Shown piece after piece: positions 1,340-19,680 of a DNA stretch of 64,000 bases. Position 1 is the stretch's first letter; the number at the start of each line of letters is the position of its first letter. The translations under genes and the position numbers were made by a program. This DNA is from Mobula birostris (lineage: Eukaryota), in contig NC_092385.1 of the NCBI RefSeq assembly GCF_030028105.1, positions 54,919,433 through 54,983,432 on the forward strand, given 5' to 3'. Below the pieces are notes generated by a model. It searched no databases, had not been told where the DNA came from, and saw only the letters and a program-made list of their open reading frames with translations.

Positions 1340-2090
1340 CTCTTCTTATTTTCCATTCCCATTCTGGCTCCCTTCTTACCCATTCTCCTCACCTGTCTAA
1401 CACTCCCACTGGTGCCCCTCCTACTTGCTTTTCTCCCATGGTCCTCTCTCCTCTCCTATCAGATTCCTTCTTCTTTAGCCCTTTACCTTTTCCACCTATC
1501 ACCTTCCAGCTTCTTACTTCATCCCCCTCCCTTAACAATTTACCTTCCCCCTCACCTATCACCTTCTCACTTGTACTCCTTCCCCTGACCCACCTTCCAA
1601 TTCTGGCTCCTTCCCCTTTCCTTTCTAGTTTTGATGAAGGGCCTCACCCTGAAACAGTGTCTCTTTATCCCTCTCCATAGATGCTGCCTGAAGTGCAGAG
1701 TTCTGCCAGCATTTTGTGTATGTTATTCCAGATCTGCAGAATCTCTTGTGTTTATTAATCCCATAATTTAATCTCCCCACATTCTCATGAACTCCTTCCC
1801 CACTCCATCTATCACCTATAGTCTCCGGCACTATTCCTACTCTCCCCTCCTCCATTTGCCTATCACCCCTCCTTATCTGGATCTACCTATCGCCTGCTAG
1901 CCCCTGCTCCACCCTTTCCATCCAAATTTTTAGACTGATCAGCACCCCTCTTTCTTTCAGTCCTGATCAGGATCCCAACTTGAGACATTAACTGTCCATT
2001 TCTCTCTGTACATGTTGCCTGACCCACTGTGTTCCTAAAACATCTGGTGTGTTCCTCTAGATTACTAGTCTGGGAACCTAACTTCTGCAC
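1340..2090 (+). mobile_element. Two tandem Penelope-like element 3' ends (pLTR-like) with degenerate hammerhead motifs
   Basis: Pyrimidine-rich PLE tail followed by TTGATGAAGGG..CCCTGAAAC (~1626-1663), and a second decayed copy (~1958-1995); same tail as the PLE copies at 3965-4520 and 49165-49640. Confidence 0.7.
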
Positions 2091-2435
2091 CACCACCTCG
2101 TCTCTGGAGCTAGTTATGAAGTGGTAGAATCGAATTTTATCTCAAACAGTGCAGAAGACAAGTATTTATTTTGTCGTCCCATCATTCTGGCAAGCAAAGA
2201 CAGAGGGACAGAATGGTCTCCTCTTCTGTGCTATCAGTTTCTGTGATAAATGATGTCATTAAAAGGCAGAACCGGCTCAAGCTGATTGGCTCACTCTTGT
2301 CCCTGCATTCCTACCTGTTTAAAATAAATTAATAAAAGCATGTTATTTTGTTTAATTCCCCTGTTATTTTTCTCTGGATTTGACCAACAGTGTTCAAGAG
2401 CTCTTGGACAACAAAAAGTCGGATGTGCAGCATTT

Positions 2436-2657
2436 TAAGACCATAAGATATAGGAGTAGAATTAGGCATCGCCTCATAAGTGTCCTCCACTATTCCATCA
2501 TGGCTGATTCATTATCCTTCTCAATCCCTTCCCTTGCCTTTCCCTCGTAAACTTTGACGGCCTTACTAATCAAGAACCTATCAATGTCTGCTTTAAATAT
2601 ACCCAATGATTTGGCCTTCACAGCTGTCCGTGACAATGAATTCCACAGATTCACCAG
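2436..2657 (-). mobile_element. CR1 LINE 3' tail
   Basis: ACCATAAGATATAGGAG..AATTAGGC tail plus AATGAATTCCACAGATTCACC motif shared with other CR1 copies in the window. Confidence 0.8.
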
Positions 2658-2940
2658 TGTTGCCACTGGTTATGAGTGACTTTGGTTGTAATTCTCTGTT
2701 ACAGCATGACATCTAATTTTAATTTTCACAGAGCTTCAAGCACACAGAGACGCAGGACCTGAAGCCTTGCCTTCAATTAAATCAAAATGCTGAATTGAAA
2801 CTCATAAAATTAATGCTAAAATAATAAATAAAGCCAAAAGGTCTTCTTTTCTATACTACTGCTTAAGATGCTAACTTCTTATTCTCCTTCCCGGTGCCTG
2901 TTACCTGTTCCTGCATCCTGTCCTTTGTTGGAGTGTTTCA

Positions 2941-3037
2941 GTAGCACTGTGATATCCCTGGACCTGAAGTACACTTTCAAGTATATCAGTAGGACTGAGA
3001 TATCCCTGAACCTAAGCTACACCTTCAAGTAGTATCT
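2941..3037. repeat. Local tandem duplication, ~48 bp x2
   Basis: GTAGCACTGTGATATCCCTGGACCTGAAGTACACTTTCAAGTA vs GTAGGACTGAGATATCCCTGAACCTAAGCTACACCTTCAAGTA. Confidence 0.8.
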
Positions 3038-3042
3038 TGTAC

Positions 3043-3670
3043 TTCAAAGTTTCAAAGTTCAAAGTACATTTATTATCAAGGTATGCACACAGAATACAAC
3101 TCTGACATTTGTCCTCCCGCACGCAGACATGAAACAAAGAAACACCATGGAACTCTTTCAAGAAAACATCAAATATGAAACATGCAAAAAAAACAACAAA
3201 TTATGCAAACAGTGAAAAGCAACTGAACAGCACAGAGTAAGGAACAAGAAGAGTTTATTCAGCACGTAGAATATCAAATATCAATCCAGGAGTACATCAA
3301 ACGCAGATTAGTTCAGATCAGTGTCACGCCACTAGCCCACTACATTTTTCAGAACAAAACATTCTTTGCTGAAGCCCCAGACTGCATTCAGACCGTTCAA
3401 TAACAGCAAAAAAAGAGTAACCAGAGTTCAGGAAGACATGCAACGTGAACCTCAACGTCCCCCAAAACAAGTTCACAGCCTCTCCAATCAATCTTTGCGA
3501 CGCGGATACCAACAATCCTACAGTTTCCTGTGACAGTAGCAAGCAAGACGGAAAGGAAGACCGGTCAAACAGAGGCAGACAGCGTTGAACACCAGCCCGT
3601 CCTTTGCTCTCATCCTCATTGACTTCAGTCTTGCTCGACGCTTCAGTCAGAGAGAAGCAAAGCAGTCAAT
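3043..3670 (-). mobile_element. Non-autonomous element with Rex1/Babar-type 3' tail
   Basis: TTCAAAGTTTCAAAGTTCAAAGTACATTTATTATC tail shared with Rex copies; no RT coding sequence seen. Confidence 0.5.
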
Positions 3671-3964
3671 CAACCTGACCTGCTGAACATTTCTTGTATT
3701 TTCCATTTTAATTTCAGATGTCCAGCATCTCTAAAGTTTTTGCTTTGATTCCCTTTTTACTGAGGGTGTGCAGTGTTGCTGATGATGTCGACTTTCAGGT
3801 GGATGTTAAACCCAGGCCAATCCTGTCCTCAGGTGTCACTAATCCTCACCCCTCAGGAACCACTACTATGACAAATGGTCTGTTCATCTAGTGGGGATCA
3901 AACTTGTTTACAAACCGGTTCCTGTTTTTCTGATATGGTAACGGTTGTTATATATCAAGACACA

Positions 3965-4520
3965 TTTCAGGATCAGTACCTCATATTCTACCTGAGTAGT
4001 TTCCAAACCAATGGTATGAACATTGAATTTTGAATCTTCCAGTAACTGTTCCCTTTCTGTCCCTTTTCTCTTTTCGCTTTTCTTACTCCCCCCCCAATCG
4101 CTCTGTCTCTTCCCCTTTTGCCATCCTCTCCATCTGCCCATCACCCACACACTCCTCCCACTGGTTCCCCTCCCACCTCCCTCCCTTAATGTCAGGCTCC
4201 ACCTTACACTCCTATCAGCTTCCATCATTTTCAGCCATTTGTCACTTCCTGGCTTATGACACCATTCATGCCCTACTGCTCCCTTATCTGCCTAACATCT
4301 CCCCTTACCTCGATCCATCTGTCACCTACCAGCTCCTGACTCACCCCTTCCCTCCACCAATTTATACTGGCTATCTCCCCACTTTCTTTCAATACAGATG
4401 AAGTACTTTGACCCAAACATCGACTGTTCATTTCCCTCCATAGAGGCTGCCTGATCTGCTGAGTTCCTTCACCATTTTGTGTGTTGCTCCATATTTCTGG
4501 CATCTGCAGTTTTTTGAGTT
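3965..4520 (+). mobile_element. Penelope-like element 3' end
   Basis: QYLIFYLSSFQTNGMNIEF resembles the PLE GIY-YIG C-terminus (EQHLIFRLGSLQP.GMNIEF); followed by the pyrimidine-rich tail and a decayed hammerhead remnant at ~4395-4425. Confidence 0.75.
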
Positions 4521-4920
4521 TCTTTTCCTACCTGGCCTGTATGTAACTGCAGACCACTTGTGGATACTTGGTGAAATAACCCAGCGAATGACTCAGTTGA
4601 AGGGAAATTATAGAGGAGCGAATGATGGTCTATCCATTGACACCTAGATCCTGATGTCTGTGCCTCAATGCAGATGTGGGTCTAATCTAATTGGCTCACC
4701 CATTTGTTCGCCAGTGTTGAGTGTTAACATCATTTATGTGGGATAGTTTTGGTTAAGCTGAGGAGTCTAACAGGGATACAAGTGACTGCAGCAAAAGACA
4801 ATTTTCCTGAAACACTCAGTGAGCTGAGAAGTATCTTTTGGGGAGTCGGGGGAAGAAATTGGCAACGTTGTTGACAAAGCTGACATCAATGTGTCTTCAA
4901 CCTGTAGACCTCAGCTTGAG

Positions 4921-5380
4921 ATTCGGATTCAGATTTATTCATCACATGTAAAGAGAAACACACAGTGAAATGTATCATTTATATTAACAACTAGATGCGC
5001 TGGCGACAGTTCATTTGTGTCACCACACATTCTGACACCAGCATAGCATTCCACGATGCCCAGCAGAACAACACAGAACACAACAAGCAACAAAACAAGC
5101 ACCTTACCTCCCACCCACACACATGGACAGTCCTCCGTCCCCAGGACAGACCTCCAGTCTCCAAGCTTTGACCAATGGGCTTCAACTTCAGACTTTGATC
5201 TTTGGTACCGACCCCTGGACTAACCAATGATGAGACCGCGAACTCCAGGCTCGAACTAAGGACTCGCACCTGACCGGGCATCGTGTCTCCTTGGGTTTCC
5301 TGCACACATGGATATCTGACTCTGGGACCCAGTGACCTGGAACAGACCAACACCCAAGGATGTCCTTTGTCACCCATTGG
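4921..5380 (-). repeat. Dispersed non-coding retroposon family (other copies ~24896-25010, ~25530-25780, ~28680-29000)
   Basis: Shared block ACAGTGAAATG..TTAACAAC..GTCACCACACATTCTG.CACCA.CATAGCAT..CAGCAGAACAACACAGA in four places. Confidence 0.7.
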
Positions 5381-5743
5381 GTAGAAATGACTTTGGAGGA
5401 AGGATATACATGCTCAGAGAAGAAATATGATTATTCCCAATATTACTGTCCTCATCTAAACACATAATCCAGCATTGTTGTGACTTTATTAGGCTTGAAT
5501 TAGTGTATTTCAGATGTTATTCATTGGTGTTACCCCAACAAAATGTTAACACTTTTTATAGATGTTACTCAGTGTTATAATAAATTTCCCTGTGAATACT
5601 GGCACGATATTCTGCACTGCACTTTCTCTATAACAGTAATGGTAATACTATATTATGCATTCTGTTATTGCTTATCCCTTTGTACTGCCTCATGTTTTGA
5701 AATGATATTTAATGTTACGATAAACATTGGTCCGTTGAATGGA

Positions 5744-6185
5744 GTCAAAGTCAAAGTCAAGTTTACTGACATATGCACAAATACAAGTATGCACAGGGGG
5801 ACTGAAAAACAGACTCATAGTAACATATAAACAGCACTCTCAAGAAAAACACAAATTAAACATAAATCAGATACAATTTGTACAGGAAAGAACACAAAAC
5901 AGAACAAAATTACCCAAAAATTACCTAAGTGGTTATAGTGTTGCTACACTGAGGGAGTGATTAGGCTTGCGCAGGTTGTTTGCAGAACCGAACTGTTGAA
6001 GGGAAGGCACTGTTCTTGAACTTGGTGACGTGGAACGTCAAGTATGACTTGCCCGATGGTAGCTGCAAGATGGCATGGCTCAGGTAATGGGGACCCTTGA
6101 GGATAGATATTGCCTACTGGAGCAGCACCTCATGTGGATTGTACCAATGGTGGGGAGGAACGTGCCAGTGTTGTACTGGGCTGAA
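5744..6185 (-). mobile_element. Rex1/Babar-like LINE 3' fragment
   Basis: GTCAAAGTCAAAGTCAAG tail; CTGTTCTTGAACTTGGTG and GTACTGGGCTG motifs as in other Rex copies. Confidence 0.7.
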
Positions 6186-6748
6186 TCAGGAGCCGGGGCA
6201 GTCACGGGTCAAAGGAAACATGGGAATGGGACTCTGGAATGTGAAAGGGAATATGGGAACTGGAGTCTTGGTGAGTGGGTCAAGAGCATGGGGAACACTA
6301 CCTAGCAAGCCAGAGTCCATACATATGGGGTTACTGAATCATCAGCTAGCAGATTATCGGAGTTTTCACAGACTATCTGTTGGTTATCACCCTGTAGATT
6401 ACAAAAAGATTCATGGCTGGAGAATTTCTGCACCATTTCCTTAACACACATTAAAATCATAGCATCGACTAGGAAGTGATATGAACCATCTTGTTACGGA
6501 GGGGTCTGTGGAATTACAAGTCTATCTTTTGATTACATTATTGGAGCATACTCTTTGACCCTCATCCAATACCCATTACTAATTCCTGGTAACACATTCG
6601 CAACACAGTGGCCTGGGGCCAACGCCTATAGCACCTTGACCCTGCTTCTTTAGCTTTTGTGTCCAAGAGTTAAGCCTTCCCAGAGAAGCCAGCCAGCACT
6701 GGACGTGTTTCCGATGGTGTCATAACAAGCTCCTTCTGCAAACCATTT

Positions 6749-6996
6749 TGTTATGTTTGTAACTCCAAAACATTAAACTAATTCAAAAGGCAGACATGAG
6801 AGTCCAAAATGTGAGTTTAACTTTGTTCTTTTACTTTAAGTGATGTGCGCATATATCGCATGGGAGCATGATCATGTATGCGATTCACATATTTATACAT
6901 ATAATATAATAAATTATATAAACGAACAAAAATGCTTCATCAATGAACATATATACAAGATTACTTAAATATTACTGAAATATTAAATATACAACA
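6749..6996 (-). repeat. 3' LTR of the Gypsy element
   Basis: TGTTATGTTTGTAACTCCAAAACATT...GAAATATTAAATATACAACA; direct repeat of 10794-11000; PPT adjacent at 6997-7010. Confidence 0.9.
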
Positions 6997-7299
6997 CTCC
7001 TCCCTGCTTAGCTCTAAACTTCAACTTAATAGAGAATGCATGTTTATTCTTATACAGACCTCCACAGCATAGTGAGTTTTAAATTGTCCCATTTGGGCTG
7101 AAAGATTTCATTGCTGTGGAGGATTTCTTACTCTTGTGGGAAAGAGTCTTTCCTGACAAGTGGAATTCCATTGTTTGGCAGGTGTGGCTTGTGGCTGTGA
7201 AACAATCTTAGGTTCTGGGGCCTCCTCCGTGGTGGATGTAGGAATTGACTCTGAGATTGCAGGAAGTGGTTCTGACAGCTCTGGACACCTTTCCTCTCC

Positions 7300-7835
7300 T
7301 TCCTTTTACTTCTTCTAGTTTGTGCATCTTGATCTTGGGAAGGTGCATTTAGTTCACTGGAGTGTTCTTTTATTAATCCTCCTTTACGATTTGATCTCTC
7401 ATGGTTTCCTCATCCACAGCATCATCTGATGAAACTGGTTTTGTATCTCCATTGACTGCTTGTTTTTTGGCCTTCCATTCATCCAGCTGGCTTTGAACTT
7501 TACCTTTATTTTACAAGCAGCTTGTTCTCTCCCACTTGAAGGTCATGCAGTAACCTTAAAGCACACAAGGCAGATTATGGTTCTTTATACTCACAAAAGC
7601 CAAATGCCTGCAACTTTCCTGAAGCTCCTTGAACTCTCTGCCAGCTTAAAACAAGGCCATATTGCACAAGTAACTGCCTAATTAACATATCAGATGCTTT
7701 CTCAGATATGTTGCTAACAAAAACTGTTGTAGTTGGACCACTGCTTTTATCACTTTTACAATCCCTCTGGGCAACATGGTTCTTCCTTGGTACAATATGC
7801 TTTCCAACCAGACGCACAGAGGTTCACACCAACAC
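7300..7835 (-). pseudogene. RBM25: Partial processed pseudogene of RNA-binding motif protein 25 (RRM region)
   Basis: GPTTTVFVSNISEKASDMLIRQLLVQYGLVLSWQRVQGASGKLQAFGFCEYKEP*SALCALRLLHDLQVGENKLLVK..QLDEWKAKK..DEETMRDQIVK..LIKEHSSELNAPSQD matches the RBM25 N-terminal RRM and following region; collinear with no introns; contains stops and frameshifts. Confidence 0.9.
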
Positions 7836-7899
7836 CTGTTTGCCCTCTGTTGGGCAATGGTTCATGGTGTTCGGCATGGAGACTTGCTTTCAGTTGGCT

Positions 7900-8707
7900 T
7901 CATTGCAGGGAGTGTGGCATACAAATGGTGGGTGGATCTCCAATTTGTAGTTGCCTCAGCCAATCATGCCCCCACAATGCTGGACCTCGTACCTGCACAG
8001 GGCATGTGGGAAGTGGATTGATGTCTGTCACTGTCATGAATATCATTCCCACAGGAGTTATTTTTTCTCCAGTATAAGTTTTAGTAGGATATCTGCAGGC
8101 TTCAGTTCAGTATCTTTGAAATGCTGTTCAGCCTCATTCTTTGGAGTGACTGAAACAGCTAAATCCGTGTCCGATTCTATGTTAGTTAATTTGCCATTCA
8201 CTTCTGGTGTAAGCCCTATTGTTTGTCTATTGCTAGTCTTCACATTGTAAGTCTCAGGGCTACACAATCTTGTGTCACTCTCATCCTTATCAGATTTTTT
8301 TTATCAACAGCATGCAGTTTAGTGCTCTTTTTGAAACTTGACTTTTTAGCTTTTTCTCCTCTCTGAGCAGTCCATTTATTTTTTTCTGCTCAACATACTC
8401 TTTGTATGTGTCCTACTTTGTTGCATTTTCTTCAAGTTTCAATTTAAATCTGCACTTGGCCTGGTCTATGTGAGCCCATGCTACAACAGTAACACAATTT
8501 GTTCAGCCAGGCCAGTTTCTGTTTAGAAGTTGCAATTTTGTTTATTCCTGACTACAACTCAATTGCTTCTCTGTCTGCTGTTTCTATTGATACAGCAATT
8601 TCAACTGTCCTTTTAAATGTAAATTGTGCTTCAGTTAGGAGCCATTTTTGAATGCTTTCCGCAAAACAATCTCTCAGTGCACCATTAAGCCCATAACTGA
8701 ACTGACA
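7900..8707 (-). pseudogene. Gypsy gag C-terminus (zinc knuckles) and aspartic protease, decayed
   Basis: CQFSYGLNGALRD..ESIQKWLLTEAQFTFKRTVEIAVSIETA; CYCC..GSH..CRFK..CNKVGHIQRVC; ORF 8058-8267 protease-like. Confidence 0.8.
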
Positions 8708-10172
8708 TTGGTTGATTCTGACATGGTCCCAGAGGACTGGAAAATTTCAAATTTCACTCCACTCTTTAAGAAGGGAGGAAGAAAAAAGAAAGGAAATTAT
8801 AGGCCTGTTAGCCTAACCCCAGTGGTTGGGAAAGTGCTAGAGTCCATTATTAAGGACAAGGCTTTGGGGTACTTGGAGACTAATGTTAAATTAAGTCAAC
8901 GTCAGCATGGTTTCTGTAAAAGGAAATCCTGTTAGAATTCTGCAAAGAAGTAACAAGCAGGGTGGACAAAGGGGAGGCAGAAAGTGTCATTTACTTAGAT
9001 TTTCAGAAGGCATTTGATAAGGTGCTTCACATGAGACTGCTTAACAAGATGAAATCCCATGTCATTACAGGAAAGGTAATGCCATGGATAGAGGAAGGCT
9101 GACAGGCAAGAGGCGGCGAATGGGAATAAAAGGGGCCTTTTCTGGTTGGGGTACAGCGAGTAGTAGTGCTCCTCAAGGGACAGTATTGGGACCGTTACTT
9201 TTCACATAGTTTGCCAATGGTTTAGATAGTGGAATTGATGACTTTGTAGCAAAGTTTGTGGATGATATGAAGATAGATGGAGGGGTAGGTAGTGCTGAAC
9301 AATAATGTGATTGCAGAATGGGAGAATGGGAAAAATGGGCGAAAAAGTGGCAGGTGGAATACAGTATTGGGAAATGTATGATAATGCATTTTGGAGCAAT
9401 AGTGCAGACAATTATATAAATGGGGAGAAAATTCTCACATCAAAGGAGCAAAGGGACTTCAGAGTCCTTGTACAAGAATTCCAGAAGGTTAATTTACAAG
9501 TTGAGTTTGTGGTAAAGAAGGCAAATGCAATGTTGGCATTTTTTTGAATGGGAAGAGATATAAAAATAAGGAGATAATGCTGAAGCTTTATAAGATACTA
9601 GTCAGGCCACACTTAGAATATTGTCAACAGTTTTGGGCCCCATGTCTCAGAAAGGAGGTGTTGTCATTGGAGACCATCCAGAGGAAATTCACGAGGATGA
9701 TTCTGGGAATGAATGGGTCAACATCTGAGGTGCATTTGGTAGCTTGGGCCTGCAGTCATTGGAATTTAGAAAAATGCATTGGGATCTCATTGAAACCTAC
9801 CAAATGTTGAATGAACTAGGTAAGGTGGATGTGGAGAGGGTGTTTCCTCTGGTGGGGGCATTCCAAACTAGAGGGCACAGACTCAAAATTGAGGGGTGAC
9901 CTTTTAGAACAAAAGTAAAGAGGGATTCTTTTAGCCAAAGAGTGGTTAATCTGTGGAATGCTCTGTCTCAGACTACAGTGGAGGCCAAGTCCATAGGTAT
10001 ATTTAAAGTGGAAGATGATAGATCCCTGAATGGTCGGGGCATCAAGGGATAGGGTGAGAGGGCAGGTATATGGGGTTGGATGGGATCCAGGATCAGCCAT
10101 GATGAAATAGCTGAGCGGACTCGATTGACTGAATGGCCTAATTCTGCTCCTATGTCTTATGGTTTTTTGGTC
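8708..10172 (+). mobile_element. CR1 LINE, 5'-truncated, inserted in the Gypsy gag
   Basis: VPEDWKISNFTPLFKKGGRKKKGNYRPVSLT, YLDFQKAFDKV, LVRPHLEYCQQFWAP; CR1 tail; gag resumes either side (LSEH|CQF). Confidence 0.9.
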
Positions 10173-10174
10173 TA

Positions 10175-10520
10175 ATGCTCAGACAATCTCCTCAATTCAG
10201 CCACGTATGCTGAAATAGACTCCATTTGATTTTGCTTATGAAACCTAAAGCATTCTGTCATCAACAATGGCTTTGGTTCTAAATGTTCCTGCATCACTTT
10301 CACAATGCCAGCAAAGTTAATTTCAGAGGGCTGGGTTAGAGCACTTAAAACTCTAAGCAAATTGTATGCCTTTTATCCCAATGCATGCAACAAAATTGGT
10401 ATTTGTTTCTCATTATTTATTTCATTTGTTTCAAGATATTGTTCAATTAGCTTAGTATACATGAGCCAGTTATCTCTAGTGGAATCAAATGTGTTAACCT
10501 TTCTGGTGTAGCCAGCCATT
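10175..10520 (-). pseudogene. Gypsy gag N-terminal part, decayed
   Basis: ORFs 10373-10555 and 10172-10360: FDSTRDNWLMYTKLIEQYLETNEI..HLEPKPLL..FRFHKQNQ..ISAYVAELRRLSEH. Confidence 0.8.
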
Positions 10521-10793
10521 TCTGCTACTTTTTTGTGATTATTATTACCCGACACTCACTCTTTATGAACTTGTGAATTATTCTGTTTTCTGACTTTTAA
10601 ACAAACTCGACCATGCTTTCCCATCCAAAGAACATGCGCAGCACTGCTTTTTTAAAAACTCGGCCATCTCTGCACATGCTGGGTTGCATTTTTGACTCAC
10701 CGTTCCTCTCTCTTTTTTTACTTTGAACATCTCACTGTGCTTCAACAGGTCAGTAGCCATCTTGGGTACTTTTTTAAAATACCTTGTCACCGC

Positions 10794-11000
10794 TGTTCTG
10801 TTTGTAACTCCAAAACATTACACTAATTCAAAGGAAGACACAGGAGTCCGAAATGTGAGCCTAACTTTGTTCTTTTACTTTAAGCATATGCATTTATTGT
10901 ATTTATACATATAACTGTTAATGAAATGAACAAAAAAGCTTAATCAACCAACATATATACAAGATTACTCAAATATAACTGAAATATTAAATGTACAACA
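10794..11000 (-). repeat. 5' LTR of the Gypsy element
   Basis: TGTTCTGTTTGTAACTCCAAAACATT...GAAATATTAAATGTACAACA; ~40 bp shorter than the other LTR; PBS-like sequence at 10781-10793. Confidence 0.9.
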
Positions 11001-11847
11001 TATTTCAGCTCGTGTCAAAGGTCACAGAGTGTGTCACTCTTCACTTTGCCCTGCCTTCCTACACCATTCAGAAAGCTTCATTGTTTGATTGTGTGACAGT
11101 TGTCAAGTAATATTTTTCCTTATCTACAATACTTTTAGAACTATAAAATGATAGATTTTGGAGCAAATTTGTAGCCAACTATATCCTTAGAATATTTCTG
11201 CAGCTTTTCTCTGGCACTGATCACAGGAGTCTGTAGGAAATTAGTTTTACTTCTACTGATAAGCAGAGGGTATTCATTAAGAAGTGTTGCAGACTTCCTC
11301 ACTTTCATCACAGGAACTAAAAAAAATAAAAATGAAACAAATTAACTCCAGCACCAATTGTACCCAGCTTGATCTAAGAAGAAAATGGCCCACTAAAATG
11401 AAAATGTTAATGGGGATCAGAATTTTTCTGGGAAGTGTCTCTAGAAAGATCTTTTTGGCAACCGTGATAAGGTGGATGCAGTTAATTTTGGTTCTCCCTT
11501 TTGATAGCTTGTGAAAACAGAGCAGCAAACTTTCATTTTGAATTTTACAATGCCTTTATCTGCTTGAAGCAGCTGTGAGTCAGAAAGTGCGCTTTGCGAT
11601 AAATTGCCTCTAAGCTAAAAGTCCGCATGGTCCAGGAGAGGCTGTGTAATTGTTCATTCTCTGCACACTCGTGCACATGATGTTGAAGATGAAGGCCTGT
11701 CAGAACCACGAGATGTGTCTGTCAGTCAGTGCCTCTCCTACCTGATGCTCTGTGTAAAGCTGCAACAGATCTGCCTGAAAGAACAAATGGAACAGTCTCA
11801 GCCAGCCAAACAAAATGAGCAGGATTTCTATTTATTTAGAGGCTTTC

Positions 11848-13449: not shown

Positions 13450-14095
13450 TCACAGTGTTCTGTTCTGGTTACCTCATCATTGAAAGAATATGGAGGCTTT
13501 AAGGAGATTTACCAGAATGTTGGCTGGATTAGAGAGCATGTCTTATGAGGAAAGGCTGAGCGAGTGAAGGAGTATGAGAGACAACTTGATAAAAGTGTAC
13601 AAGATGAGGAGAGGCACATTGAGTGGATTGTCAGAAACTTTTCCCCAGGGCAGAGCATGCCAACTCAAGGGAGAATAATTTTAAGGTATTACTTCTAAGG
13701 AAAGTAATTTAAAGGTATAACTTTTAAGGAAAGTAGTTTTAAGATATGACTTTTAAGGAAAGTAATTCTAAGGTATAACTTTTAAGGAAAGCAATTTTAA
13801 GGTATAACTTCTAAGGAATGCCATGTTAAGGTACAACTTTTAAGAAAAAATTCAGGAAATTACAGGGGGGATATCAGCGGTAAGTTTTTATACAGTGAGT
13901 GATGGGTGTGTGGAACAACCCGTTCGAGACAGATTCACCACGGATATTTAAAATCTCTTAGATAGGCACGTGGATGATGGAAAAATGGAGAGCTATGTAG
14001 GAGGGAGAGGTTTAGGTTGATCATAGAGTAGGTTAAAAGGTTGGAGCAACATTGTTGGCCGCAAGGTCTGTACTGCGCTGTAGTGTTGTATGTTT
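13450..14095 (+). mobile_element. CR1 LINE 3' fragment
   Basis: TTCTGGTTACCTCATCATTGAAAGAATATGGAGGCTTT..; CR1 tail TGTACTGCGCTGTAGTGTTG. Confidence 0.75.
13678..13845. repeat. 29-bp minisatellite, ~6 copies, inside a CR1
   Basis: Unit TTTTAAGGTATAACTTTTAAGGAAAGTAA recurs at 29-bp period (13684, 13713, 13742, 13771, 13800, 13829). Confidence 0.85.
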
Positions 14096-15520: not shown

Positions 15521-17200
15521 TCAGAACACCGCCCCAGCCTTCCCTCCATACCCCCTGACCCCCGTAGCCACAAGGGCCATATCTAACTCCCTCTTAAATA
15601 TAGCCAATGAACTGGCCTCAACTGTTTCCTGTGGCAGAGAATTCCACAGATTCACCACTCTCTGTGTGAAGTAGTTTTTCCTAATCTCGGTCCTAAAAGG
15701 TTTCCCCTCTATCCTCAAACTGTGACCCCTCGTTCTGGACTTCCCCAACATCGAGAACAATCTTCCTGCATCTAGCCTATCCAATCCCTTTAGGATCTTA
15801 TACGTTTCAATCAGATCCCCCCTCAATCTTCTAAATTCCAACGAGTACAAGCCCAGTTCATCCAGTCTTTCTTCATATGAAAGTCCTGCCATCCCAGGAA
15901 TCAATCTGGTGAACTTTCTTTGTACTCCCTCTATGGCAAGGATGTCTTTCCTCAGATTAGGGGACCAAAACTGCACACAATACTCCAGGTGTGGTCTCAC
16001 CAAGGCCTTGTACAACTGCAGTAGTACCTCCCTGCTCCTGTACTCGAATCCTCTCGCTATAAATGCCAGCATACCATTCGCCTTTTTCACCGCCTGCTGT
16101 ACCTGCATGCCCACTTTCAATGACTGGTGTATAATGACACCCAGGTCTCGTTGCACCTCCCCTTTTCCTAATCGGCCACCATTCAGATAATAATCTGTTT
16201 TCCTATTTTTGCCACCAAAGTGGATAACTTCACATTTATCCACATTAAATTGCATCTGCCATGAATTTGCCCACTCACCCAACCTATCCAAGTCACCCTG
16301 CATCCTCTTAGCATCCTCCTCACAGCTAACACTGCCACCCAGCTTCGTGTCATCCGCAAACTTGGAGATGCTGCATTTAATTCCCTCATCCAAGTCATTA
16401 ATATATATTGTAAACAACTGGGGTCCCAGCACTGAGCCTTGCGGTACCCCACTAGTCACCGCCTGCCATTCTGAAAAGGTCCCGTTTATTCCCACTCTTT
16501 GCTTCCTGTCTGCTAACCAACTCTCCACCCACACCAATACCTTACCCCCAATACCGTGTGCTTTAAGTTTGCACACTAATCTCCTGTGTGGGACCTTGTC
16601 AAAAGCCTTTTGAAAATCCAAATATACCACATCCACTGGTTCTCCCCTATCCACTCTACTAGTTACATCCTCAAAAAATTCTATGAGATTCGTCAGACAT
16701 GATTTTCCTTTCACAAATCCATGCTGACTTTGTCCGATCATTTCACCGCTTTCCAAATGTGCTGTTATCACATCCTTGATAACTGACTCCAGCAGTTTCC
16801 CCACCATCGACGTTAGGCTAACCGGTCTATAATTCCCCGGTTTCTCTCTCCCTCCTTTTTTAAAAAGTGGAGTTACATTAGCCACCCTCCAATCCTTAGG
16901 AACTAGTCCAGAATCTAACGAGTTTTGAAAAATTATCACTAATGCATCCACTATTTCTTGGGCTACTTCCTTAAGCACCCTGGGATGCAGACCATCTGGC
17001 CCTGGGGATTTATCTGCCTTCAATCCCTTCAATTTACCTAACACCACTTCCCCACTAACATGTATTTCGCTCAGTTCCTCCATCTCACTGGACCCTCTGT
17101 CCCCTACTATTTCTGGAAGATTATTTATGTCCTCCTTAGTGAAGACAGAACCAAAGTAATTATTCAATTGGTCTGCCATGTCCTTGCTCCCCATAATCAA
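15521..17200 (-). CDS. CR1 ORF2 reverse transcriptase region (559 aa open segment)
   Basis: KSPGPDG, NYRPVSLTS, YLDFQKAFDKV, GVPQGSVLGP, KFADDTKL motifs. Confidence 0.9.
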   Translation of the reverse strand: MIMGSKDMADQLNNYFGSVFTKEDINNLPEIVGDRGSSEMEELSEIHVSGEVVLGKLKGLKADKSPGPDGLHPRVLKEVAQEIVDALVIIFQNSLDSGLVPKDWRVANVTPLFKKGGREKPGNYRPVSLTSMVGKLLESVIKDVITAHLESGEMIGQSQHGFVKGKSCLTNLIEFFEDVTSRVDRGEPVDVVYLDFQKAFDKVPHRRLVCKLKAHGIGGKVLVWVESWLADRKQRVGINGTFSEWQAVTSGVPQGSVLGPQLFTIYINDLDEGIKCSISKFADDTKLGGSVSCEEDAKRMQGDLDRLGEWANSWQMQFNVDKCEVIHFGGKNRKTDYYLNGGRLGKGEVQRDLGVIIHQSLKVGMQVQQAVKKANGMLAFIARGFEYRSREVLLQLYKALVRPHLEYCVQFWSPNLRKDILAIEGVQRKFTRLIPGMAGLSYEERLDELGLYSLEFRRLRGDLIETYKILKGLDRLDAGRLFSMLGKSRTRGHSLRIEGKPFRTEIRKNYFTQRVVNLWNSLPQETVEASSLAIFKRELDMALVATGVRGYGGKAGAVF

Positions 17201-17238
17201 TTCACCTGTTTCTGTCTGTAGGGGACCTACATTTGTCT

Positions 17239-18012
17239 TTACCAGTCTTTTCTTTTTACATATCTATAAAAGCTTTTACAGTCCGTTTTTATGTTGCCTG
17301 CCAGTTTTCTCTCATAATCTTTTTTCCCCTTCCTAATTAAGCCCTTTGTCCTCCTCTGCTGAACTCTGAATTTCTCCCAGTCCTCAGGTGAGCCACTTTT
17401 TCTGGCTAATTTGTATGCTTCTTCTTTGGAATTGATACTATCCCTAATTTCTCTTGTCAGCCACGGGTGCACTACCTTCCTTGATTTATTCTTTTGCCAA
17501 ACTGGGATGAACATTTGTTGCAGTTCATCCATGCAACCTTTAAATGCTTGCCATTGCATATCCACCGTCAATCCTTTAAGTGTCATTTGCCAGTCTATCT
17601 TAGCTAATTCACGTCTCATACCTTCAAAGTTACCCCTCTTTAAGTTCAGAACTTTTGTTTCTGAATTAACTATGTCACTCTCCATCTTAATGAAGAATTC
17701 CACCATATTATGGTCACTCTTACCCAAGGAGCCTCTCACGACAAGATTGCTAATTAACCCTTCCTCATTGCTCAAAACCCAGTCCAGAATAGCCTGCTCT
17801 CTAGTCGGTTCCTCGACATGTTGGTTCAAAAAACCATCCCGCATACATTCCAAGAAATCCTTTTCCTCAGCACCTTTACCAATTTGGTTCACCCAATCTA
17901 CATGTAGATTGAAGTCACCCATTATAACTGCTGTTCCTTTATTGCACACATTTCTAATTTCATGTTTAATACCATCTCCGACCTCACTACTACTGTTAGG
18001 TGGCCTGTACAC
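17239..18012 (-). CDS. CR1 ORF2 APE endonuclease C-terminal half and linker (frameshifted from the RT segment)
   Basis: YRPPN, IMGDFN, ILDWVLSN, SDHNMV motifs. Confidence 0.85.
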   Translation of the reverse strand: MYRPPNSSSEVGDGIKHEIRNVCNKGTAVIMGDFNLHVDWVNQIGKGAEEKDFLECMRDGFLNQHVEEPTREQAILDWVLSNEEGLISNLVVRGSLGKSDHNMVEFFIKMESDIVNSETKVLNLKRGNFEGMRRELAKIDWQMTLKGLTVDMQWQAFKGCMDELQQMFIPVWQKNKSRKVVHPWLTREIRDSINSKEEAYKLARKSGSPEDWEKFRVQQRRTKGLIRKGKKDYERKLAGNIKTDCKSFYRYVKRKDW

Positions 18013-18032
18013 AACTCACAACTAGATACACA

Positions 18033-19680
18033 ACCAATGAGAGGGAACTTGATGACAGTGAGGACAATATGATTGAGGTTGATGTTCTGGAGCATGTTGA
18101 TATTAAGGGAGAGGAGGTGTTGGAGTTGTTAAAATACATTAGGATGGATAAGTTCCCGGGGCCTGATGGAATATTCCCCAGGCTGCTCCACAAGGTGAGG
18201 GAAGAGATTGCTGAGCCTCTGGCTAGGATCTTTATGTCCTCGTTGTCCATGGGAATGGTACCAGAGGATTGAAGGGAGGCGAACGTTGTCCCCTTGTTCA
18301 AAAAAGGTAGTAGGTATACTCCAGGTAATTATAGATGAGTGAGCCTTACATCTAGAGTGGGAAAGCTATTGGAAAAGATTCTTAGAGATAGGATCTATGG
18401 GCATTTAGAGAGTCATGATCTGATCAGGGACAGTCAGCATGGCTTTGTGAAGGGCAGATCGTGTCTAACAAGCCTGATAGAGTTCTTTGAGGAGGTGACC
18501 AGGCATATAGATGAGGGTAGTGCAGTGGATGTGATCTACATGGATTTTAGTGAGGCACTTGACAAGGTTCCACACGGTAGGCTTATTCAGAAAGTCAGAA
18601 GGCATGGGATCCAGGGAAGTTTGACCAGGTAGATTCAGAATTGGCTTGCCTGCAGAAAGCAGGGGTCCATGGTGGCAGGAATACATTTGGATTGGAGGAT
18701 TGTGACTAGTCATGTCCCACAAGGATCGGTTTTGGGACCTCTACCTTTCGTGATTTTTATTAATGACCTGGATGTGGGAGCAGAGGGGTGGGTTGGCAAG
18801 TTTGCAGACAACACAAAGGTTGGTGGTGTTGTGGATAGTGTAGAGGATTGTCGAAAATTGCAGAGTGACATTGATAGGATGCAGAAGTGGGCTGAGAAGT
18901 GGCAGGTGGAGTTCAACCTGGAGAAGTGTGAGGTGGTACACTTTGGAAGGACAAATTCCAAGGTAGAGTACAAAGTAAATGGCAGGATACTTGGTAGTGT
19001 GGAGGAGCAGAGGGACCTGGGGGTACATGTCCACAGATCCCTGAAAGTTGCCTCACAGGTGGATAGGGTAGTTAGGAAAGCTTATGGGGTGTTAGCTTTC
19101 ATAATTCGGGGGATAGAGTTTAAGAGTTGTGAGGTAATGATGCAGCTGTATAAAACTCTGGTTAGGCCACACTTGGAGTACTGTGTCCATTTCTGGTCGC
19201 CTCACTATAGGAAGGATGTGGAAGCATTGGAAAGGGTACAGAGGAGATTTACCAGGATGCTGCCCGGTTTAGAGAGTATGGATTATGATCAGAGATTAAG
19301 GGAGCTAGGGCTTTACTCTTTGGAGAGAAGGAGGATGAGAGGAGACATGATAGAGGTGTACAAGATAATAAGAGGAATAGATAGAGTGGATAGCCAGCGC
19401 CTCTTCCCCAGGGCACCACTGCTCAGTACAAGAGGACATGACTTTAAGGTAAGGGGTGGGAAGTTCAAGGGGGATATTAGAGGAAGGTTTTTTACTCAGA
19501 GAGTGGTTGGCGTGTGGAATGCACTGCCTGCGTCAGTGGTGGAGGCAGATACACTAGTGAAATTTAAGAGACTAGTAGACAGGTATATGGAGGAATTTAA
19601 TGTGGGGGGTTATATGGGAGGCAGGGTTTGAGGGTCAGCACAACATTGTGGGCCGAAGGGTCTGTACGGAGCTGTACTAT
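18033..19680 (+). mobile_element. CR1 LINE of a second subfamily, 5'-truncated, several stops
   Basis: KFPGPDGIFPR, QHGFVKGRSCLT, VPQGSVLGP, KFADNTK, FFTQRVVGVWNALP; tail GGGCCGAAGGGTCTGTAC..CTGTACTAT. Confidence 0.92.

Follow-up and report, generated by a model that had tools for sequence, protein, structure and literature searches.

Partial copies of host messages can be carried by long terminal repeat (LTR) retrotransposons, and such LTR-mediated retrocopies have been described in animals (Tan et al. 2016, PMC5131818). In the passages of that paper used here, a partial spliced mRNA replaces the internal open reading frame (ORF) of the element, both LTRs are kept, and the insert has neither a poly(A) tail nor a target site duplication (TSD) of its own; re-mobilisation is proposed from a few multi-site cases. 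The present study concerns a Gypsy element with all of these features, including microsimilarity at the junctions, in a 64,000-nucleotide stretch of the Mobula birostris genome (contig NC_092385.1; the whole stretch is called the window). With a probability of roughly 0.86, we regard it as a decayed member of a non-autonomous Gypsy family in which spliced RBM25 mRNA takes the place of the reverse transcriptase (RT)–RNaseH (RH)–integrase (IN) core, likely captured once by two microhomology-guided switches and likely copied in trans by a pol-bearing parent to an estimated 2,400–2,800 sites.

The maize Bs1 element and the human FAM8A1/HERV-K chimeras are low in copy number. Both hold host mRNA fragments in a defective LTR element (as cited in PMC5131818), as does the RBM25 family, although Bs1 contains three genes and the RBM25 family one. 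Plant TR-GAG elements are a second point of comparison. As presented in the relevant part of Chaparro et al. (2015, PMC4350172), they share with the RBM25 family a length below 4 kb, the order LTR, primer-binding site (PBS), gag with or without CCHC, polypurine tract (PPT), LTR, and the absence of RT, RH and IN, and they are mobilised in trans to up to ~1,000 copies. They are, however, plant elements without a captured host mRNA, and the TR-GAG screen excluded protease, whereas the RBM25 family keeps protease and an integrase tail; with these present, and gag broken in the window copy, the element falls outside the TR-GAG definition. The W-linked Masculinizer retrocopies Pxyfem (bioRxiv 10.1101/2022.04.04.486979) resemble the RBM25 copies in being partial cDNAs, present many times over and likely the products of LTR elements; according to the part of that preprint used here they yield silencing RNAs against the parent gene, whereas the RBM25 family is known here from sequence only.

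Against this background the mechanism is a known one (Tan et al. 2016), and what is unusual is the scale and the completeness of the fossil record. In the passages of PMC5131818, nine Drosophila retrocopies together occupy 18 insertion sites and each vertebrate has few cases, whereas here what is likely a single capture was followed by thousands of copies. The microsimilarity at both switches has a median of 6 bp there and measures 7 nt and 9 nt here, and a reused switch-back site in the Gypsy element BLASTOPIA parallels the shared landing site described below. The RBM25 family further differs from the cases in those passages in its series of nested, trimmed forms and in showing signs of recombination. 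No paper on an RBM25-carrying Gypsy family was found in a literature search to which Repbase and Dfam did not belong, and the family may be catalogued there. RBM25 is absent from the main-text passages of 10.64898/2026.06.26.734816 and PMC13320880, whose supplements may list it, and the passages of the Squalomix preprint are silent on the family. The top cartilaginous-fish retrocopy parents in passages of 10.64898/2026.06.26.734816 (MIPOL1, SUDS3, SDF2L1, SLU7 and ZNF276) might be transposon-borne cargo too.

The Captured Message and Its Junctions

The RBM25 sequence of the window copy amounts to 594 nt (7883–7290), rather than the ~540 bp of a first-pass annotation made from the letters alone, and lies between protease and integrase tail. 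It contains an RNA recognition motif (RRM; Pfam RRM_1, E 4e-6), and the top of 252 protein matches is a shark RBM25-like protein (79%), a match by which the host would be taken for a cartilaginous fish. The host gene was located with a C-terminal RBM25 query, which matched three exons at one place, near 154.48 Mb of contig C1, and 160 kb around this site was used for comparison; exon numbers are those of our own analysis. A PWI family search for the donor had matched other exons, presumably SRRM1-like and PRPF3-like. The window piece aligns end to end with five separate host exons at 79–92%, and host introns of 1.7–4.8 kb are absent from it. It spans joins between exons of a gene that lies on a different contig, with four junctions and an exon 9/10 remnant in the window copy and eight junctions family-wide. 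Between exons 3 and 4 lies a 48-nt cassette with AG/GT ends, in frame and without a stop, and so ruled out as a poison exon; it has two in-frame ATGs and was found in one of 125 retrieved RBM25 proteins (shark protein P0001). Because five host exons, the cassette included, are joined without introns, the insert derives from the spliced RNA of a particular isoform. Upstream of its exon 2, the host RBM25 gene also has two matches to the family LTR (C1:154378696-154378934 and 154406325-154406559), which run antisense to it.

Siblings picked by their gag-protease sequence (n = 29) run either into RBM25 (21) or into pol (8). The two classes part directly after TGCCACA, a 7-nt word also present in the last 10 nt of exon 3. 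This one start is shared by 100 of 120 sampled chimeric copies, the other 20 starting further in. Long copies also contain exons 8 and 9, reach into exon 10 and meet the integrase tail at GAGAAGAAA, which is present in both partners; this 9-nt microhomology lies ~29 nt inside exon 10, and the join is out of frame with integrase. The original capture is ~1,070 nt, from the end of exon 3 to exon 10, with eight splice junctions. It replaced ~2.4–2.5 kb of RT-RH-IN sequence, the distance from junction to tail being 2,397 in L073 and 2,546 in L075, the fullest pol-bearing siblings. From the shared junctions a single origin of the capture appears likely.

These findings support the proposal of the first-pass annotation that the element is an LTR-mediated retrocopy made by two template switches. 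The endpoints of the pol deletion coincide exactly with the RBM25 boundaries, the insert matches several exons of a distant gene, and, as that annotation had noted, neither end of the piece shows poly(A) or a TSD of its own, in the window copy or at the family junctions. Because both ends are intra-exonic and poly(A) is absent, the junctions argue against splicing and against insertion by a long interspersed element (LINE). In the window copy RBM25 begins at an exon edge, a feature that is secondary because ~30 nt has been lost across the 5′ junction in a deletion private to this copy relative to its siblings. The purine-rich 3′ junction that had been suggested as the microhomology does include that of exon 10, but is a composite with exon 7 and the start of exon 9, formed after later deletions. 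The locus itself is not the capture event, as had been supposed, but one late, trimmed member of the family.

By established retroelement biology, RBM25 mRNA would have been co-packaged with element RNA. The first template switch of reverse transcriptase, onto this mRNA, would have taken place in exon 10 and the return switch in exon 3; enzymes of the parent family would have acted as helpers in copying the shortened chimeric product. Nested deletions then trimmed the purine-rich exons 7–10, and co-packaged chimeric RNAs may have recombined.

Copy Number and Spread

A genome-wide search with the RBM25 piece and both flanks gave 4,049 first-look candidates, and the 40 of these that were scored comprised the window copy and 39 others at 77–84% on many contigs; the 19 siblings examined have the element sequence around the RBM25 piece in common. 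An 18-mer across the chimeric 5′ junction has 237 exact matches (control 0), the corresponding pol-bearing junction 455 (control 0), and a 20-mer across the exon 6/7 junction 484 with at most one mismatch (control 1). Calibration on independently chosen copies, a sample that leans to better-kept ones, converts the 5′-junction count to an estimated 2,800 copies (95% interval 1,350–7,500; word present in 6 of 71 copies) and the exon 6/7 count to 2,400 (1,600–3,900; 18 of 90). At loci chosen by the exon junction alone, protease or integrase tail adjoins in 29 of 30. The single locus of the earlier account has become a large family, and the mobilisation in trans which that account had thought feasible appears, from the junction counts and sampled copies, to have happened on a large scale. 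Copies carry their own TSDs (5/5 positions in L081, 4/5 in L082 and in the window copy), and the PBS pattern occurs in 12 of the 21 chimeric copies that have an LTR end. With LTRs, PBS and PPT kept, RT, RH and IN absent, and copies dispersed, the family is a non-autonomous LTR retrotransposon.

Runs X3, X9, X10 and X14 bear the labels of four organisms, and the contigs of each stack up over the RBM25 part, a summed depth that does not equal copy number; the single-copy flank is fully covered only by X3, and the chimeric junction letters occur in X9. The occurrence of the family is clearly not limited to the present species label. As to co-transcription with the LTR, junction letters also occur, in an uncontrolled comparison, in contigs of runs that may be RNA; a sequencing-run search listed no RNA run. 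At one locus (L060:1983-3014, equivalent to L092:5931-6965) a 344-codon open frame spans both junctions. It was considered as a fusion protein and rejected: gag upstream is broken, the RRM is partly deleted and finds no Pfam match in the frame, and of 47 proteins returned, those with names are called RBM25-like or hypothetical, and no name denotes a fusion.

The Parent Family and a Second Derivative

Pol-bearing siblings carry RT, RH and IN after the shared TGCCACA. In L074 Pfam RVT_1, RT_RNaseH(_2) and Integrase_H2C2 follow in order, giving the arrangement protease (PR)-RT-RH-IN that defines Ty3/Gypsy. The parent RT is 65–69% identical to the best fish proteins, which are named Gypsy or K02A2.6-like, and K02A2.6-like fish Gypsy elements have the same PR-RT-RH-IN order, in a comparison by protein name, identity and domain order. 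From the two knuckles, the 5-bp TSD, the tRNA-Ser PBS and the protein names, the parent family may be of Mag type. The tRNA-Ser(GCT) 3′-end motif has 73 of its 85 exact matches on contig C17, spread evenly along its whole length at 0.17–85 Mb (L165, L166); these would be either tRNAs in a dispersed array or a repeat that bears the tRNA and is restricted to a single chromosome.

A second derivative has lost ~770 nt of the integrase core; a 6-nt microhomology connects it to the 3′ landing word also used in the RBM25 capture. The deletion is found in 5 of 16 pol-class loci that have the tail; its junction motif has 152 matches, against 236 for the undeleted tail, and the donor word stands upstream in 11 of 30 undeleted loci. 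The landing site in the integrase tail would be a hotspot for switching or else the boundary of a 3′ region needed in cis.

Trimming, Possible Recombination and Age

Both anchors of the insert were found in 76 copies, of which 48 are short forms like that of the window; in the other 28, longer stretches of the purine-rich exons 7–10 survive to varying extents, and none of the 76 keeps all of them. Some trimmed lengths recur across several copies, so replication was still under way in the lineages in which the deletions arose. Between a 5′ subfamily marker and the short or long 3′ form no linkage is seen (16/9 versus 18/8, p 0.77; 51 of 120 copies scored), an indication that co-packaged chimeric RNAs recombined.

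The LTRs of the window copy differ by a Kimura two-parameter (K2P) distance of 0.11–0.13. The median is 0.23 in 20 chimeric pairs and 0.21 in 6 pol-bearing pairs (p 0.70), several of the alignments being doubtful and a pair having been obtained at only 6 of 26 pol-bearing loci. In the protease region the p-distance is 0.253 within 90 chimeric copies, 0.248 within 33 others and 0.252 between them; the tree is star-like, and one of 529 columns is diagnostic. Equal distances and a star-shaped tree imply that chimeric and pol-bearing copies were amplified in one old burst. Judged from these alignments, the two classes appear equally old and indistinguishable in protease, as would be expected for mobilisation in trans.

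Over 67 copies, the identity between the RBM25 part and the host gene is 87%. In these copies low-frequency changes strike non-synonymous, synonymous and stop-creating sites alike; frameshifting gaps average 4.4 per copy and host CpG sites have mostly decayed. A functional retrogene is rejected on these grounds, with stops, frameshifts, neutral decay and no intact frame under purifying selection.

Alternative Explanations

Several observations weigh against the account given above. Microhomology can be used by DNA repair too and does not prove a switch at the RNA level, and the 3′ word is rich in purines. Chimeric copies do not form one clade in the protease tree (26 changes against a shuffled mean of 29), which is uninformative on a single origin. 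One of the 30 loci picked by the exon junction (L141) has no element sequence beside it, and the age and copy-number comparisons carry the limits on LTR pairs and calibration stated above. The remaining points are those that selection on the cargo would also give, through an in-frame Gag-protease-RBM25 RRM fusion or an RBM25 RNA that aided export, packaging or copying. The 5′ join is in frame with protease in many copies, although chance alone gives this one time in three. The dominant short form preserves the frame, its deletion being a multiple of three in 29 of 38 copies of its length class, whereas the 28 longer forms divide 9/10/9 over the three frames. The exons from the cassette to exon 7, with the RRM, are retained in 107–113 of 120 copies, against 14 for exon 8 and 7 for exon 9, a loss that short direct repeats explain. 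All 17 differences from today's host gene that are common to at least 36 copies are synonymous, but those common to 16–35 copies are 6 non-synonymous and 2 synonymous; the simplest reading of the 17, which are unpolarised, is host-side drift at silent sites after capture of an unselected cargo. A cargo-free deletion derivative was amplified too. Selection on the cargo is on balance improbable, and the RBM25 piece is most likely a passenger.

Two other routes into the element can be imagined. A LINE-made RBM25 pseudogene, or a free cDNA, might have been patched into a Gypsy copy by microhomology-mediated DNA repair and then amplified; LINEs are abundant here, and microhomology is a repair signature as well. 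Both ends lie inside coding exons, however, in sense orientation and without poly(A), the independent pol deletion reuses the 3′ site with a 6-nt microhomology, as fits polymerase jumps, and the C-terminal RBM25 query matched the real gene only (3 matches). A LINE-made processed pseudogene as such is rejected, the 3′ end of the captured piece lying in exon 10 and the PWI-coding end being found only in the real gene, and the patching route is very unlikely. The beginning of the window piece at the first base of the cassette exon might instead recall read-through from an element in an RBM25 intron, spliced into host exons, but that edge is the private 30-nt deletion. The family junctions are both intra-exonic, at 10 nt into exon 3 and ~29 nt into exon 10, and neither offers a GT donor, so capture by splicing is rejected and retains hardly any probability. 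Capture by template switching, followed by copying in trans, is the reading adopted here.

Organization of the Window Copy

Parts of the window copy are listed below. All the components named in the first-pass annotation (LTRs, PBS, PPT, gag, CCHC knuckles, protease and integrase tail) were located in the normal order; its near-perfect 5-bp TSD stands as a 4/5 match, and its description lacked the antisense LINE fragment that splits gag. This fragment, presumably CR1/L2-like, may be flanked by a 4-bp duplication. Pfam support for knuckles and protease comes from siblings, with a weak zf-CCHC match in L074 (E 0.005) and RVP in L053 (E 0.002).

Features of the RBM25-carrying Gypsy copy, in window positions, and loci of the second derivative
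Feature	Position	Strand	Remarks
Whole LTR element	11000-6749	minus	5′ to 3′, Gypsy order
5′ TSD copy	11001..11005	minus	AAATA, 5 bp
5′ LTR	10794..11000	minus	207 bp; TG...CA ends
PBS, decayed	10782..10793	minus	family form complementary to tRNA-Ser(GCT)
gag, 5′ part	10174..10519	minus	stops and frameshifts; gag start 10519
LINE fragment inside gag	8711..10173	plus	later, 5′-truncated, 1,463 nt; antisense to element; RVT_1 E 2e-4
gag, 3′ part	8300..8710	minus	broken; two CCHC-like knuckles near 8494-8390
Aspartic protease and linker	7884..8299	minus	broken; protease site near 8170
RBM25 cassette exon	7836..7883	minus	48 nt, in frame; host C1:154450900-154450947
RBM25 exons 4-7, spliced	7322..7835	minus	RRM; stops and frameshifts; 79-89% identity to host exons
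RBM25 exon 9 start and exon-10 microhomology remnant	7290..7321	minus	3′ switch site; left after nested deletions
Integrase C-terminal tail and 3′ untranslated part	7009..7289	minus	
PPT	6997..7008	minus	
3′ LTR	6749..6996	minus	248 bp; TG...CA ends
3′ TSD copy	6744..6748	minus	AAATG; matches AAATA at 4/5
Second-derivative loci	L207-L214, L187, L190, L200, L076, L078		

Elsewhere in the window, a LINE with long endonuclease and RT frames lies at 15524-18015 (minus strand), a second RT fragment at 18633-19628 (plus strand), and six copies of a 29-bp tandem unit at 13641-13872. No host-gene domain was found among 55 long frames scanned outside the element in the 64-kb window.

Implications

A more far-reaching proposal is that the capture was not neutral. 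The purine-rich integrase-tail site could be a capture vector open to repeated use, the in-frame Gag-protease-RRM fusion or the RBM25 RNA could have aided spread, and thousands of RBM25-like loci could have become sources of silencing RNAs directed at a core splicing factor, across a lineage of cartilaginous fishes. We consider this proposal, taken as a whole, to have only a small chance of being correct.

As this case shows, a single fragment of coding mRNA, once captured, can give rise in a vertebrate to a whole transposon family of thousands, a step previously proposed from a handful of cases. In the copies an old RBM25 isoform, with a rare cassette exon, is preserved as a dated archive. 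An internal clock is provided by the 17 synonymous differences that separate the copies from the present-day gene. They also record the behaviour of reverse transcriptase, in the shared landing site, the nested trimming and the unlinked markers. Such families distort retrocopy counts, repeat masking and the mapping of RBM25 reads in these genomes.

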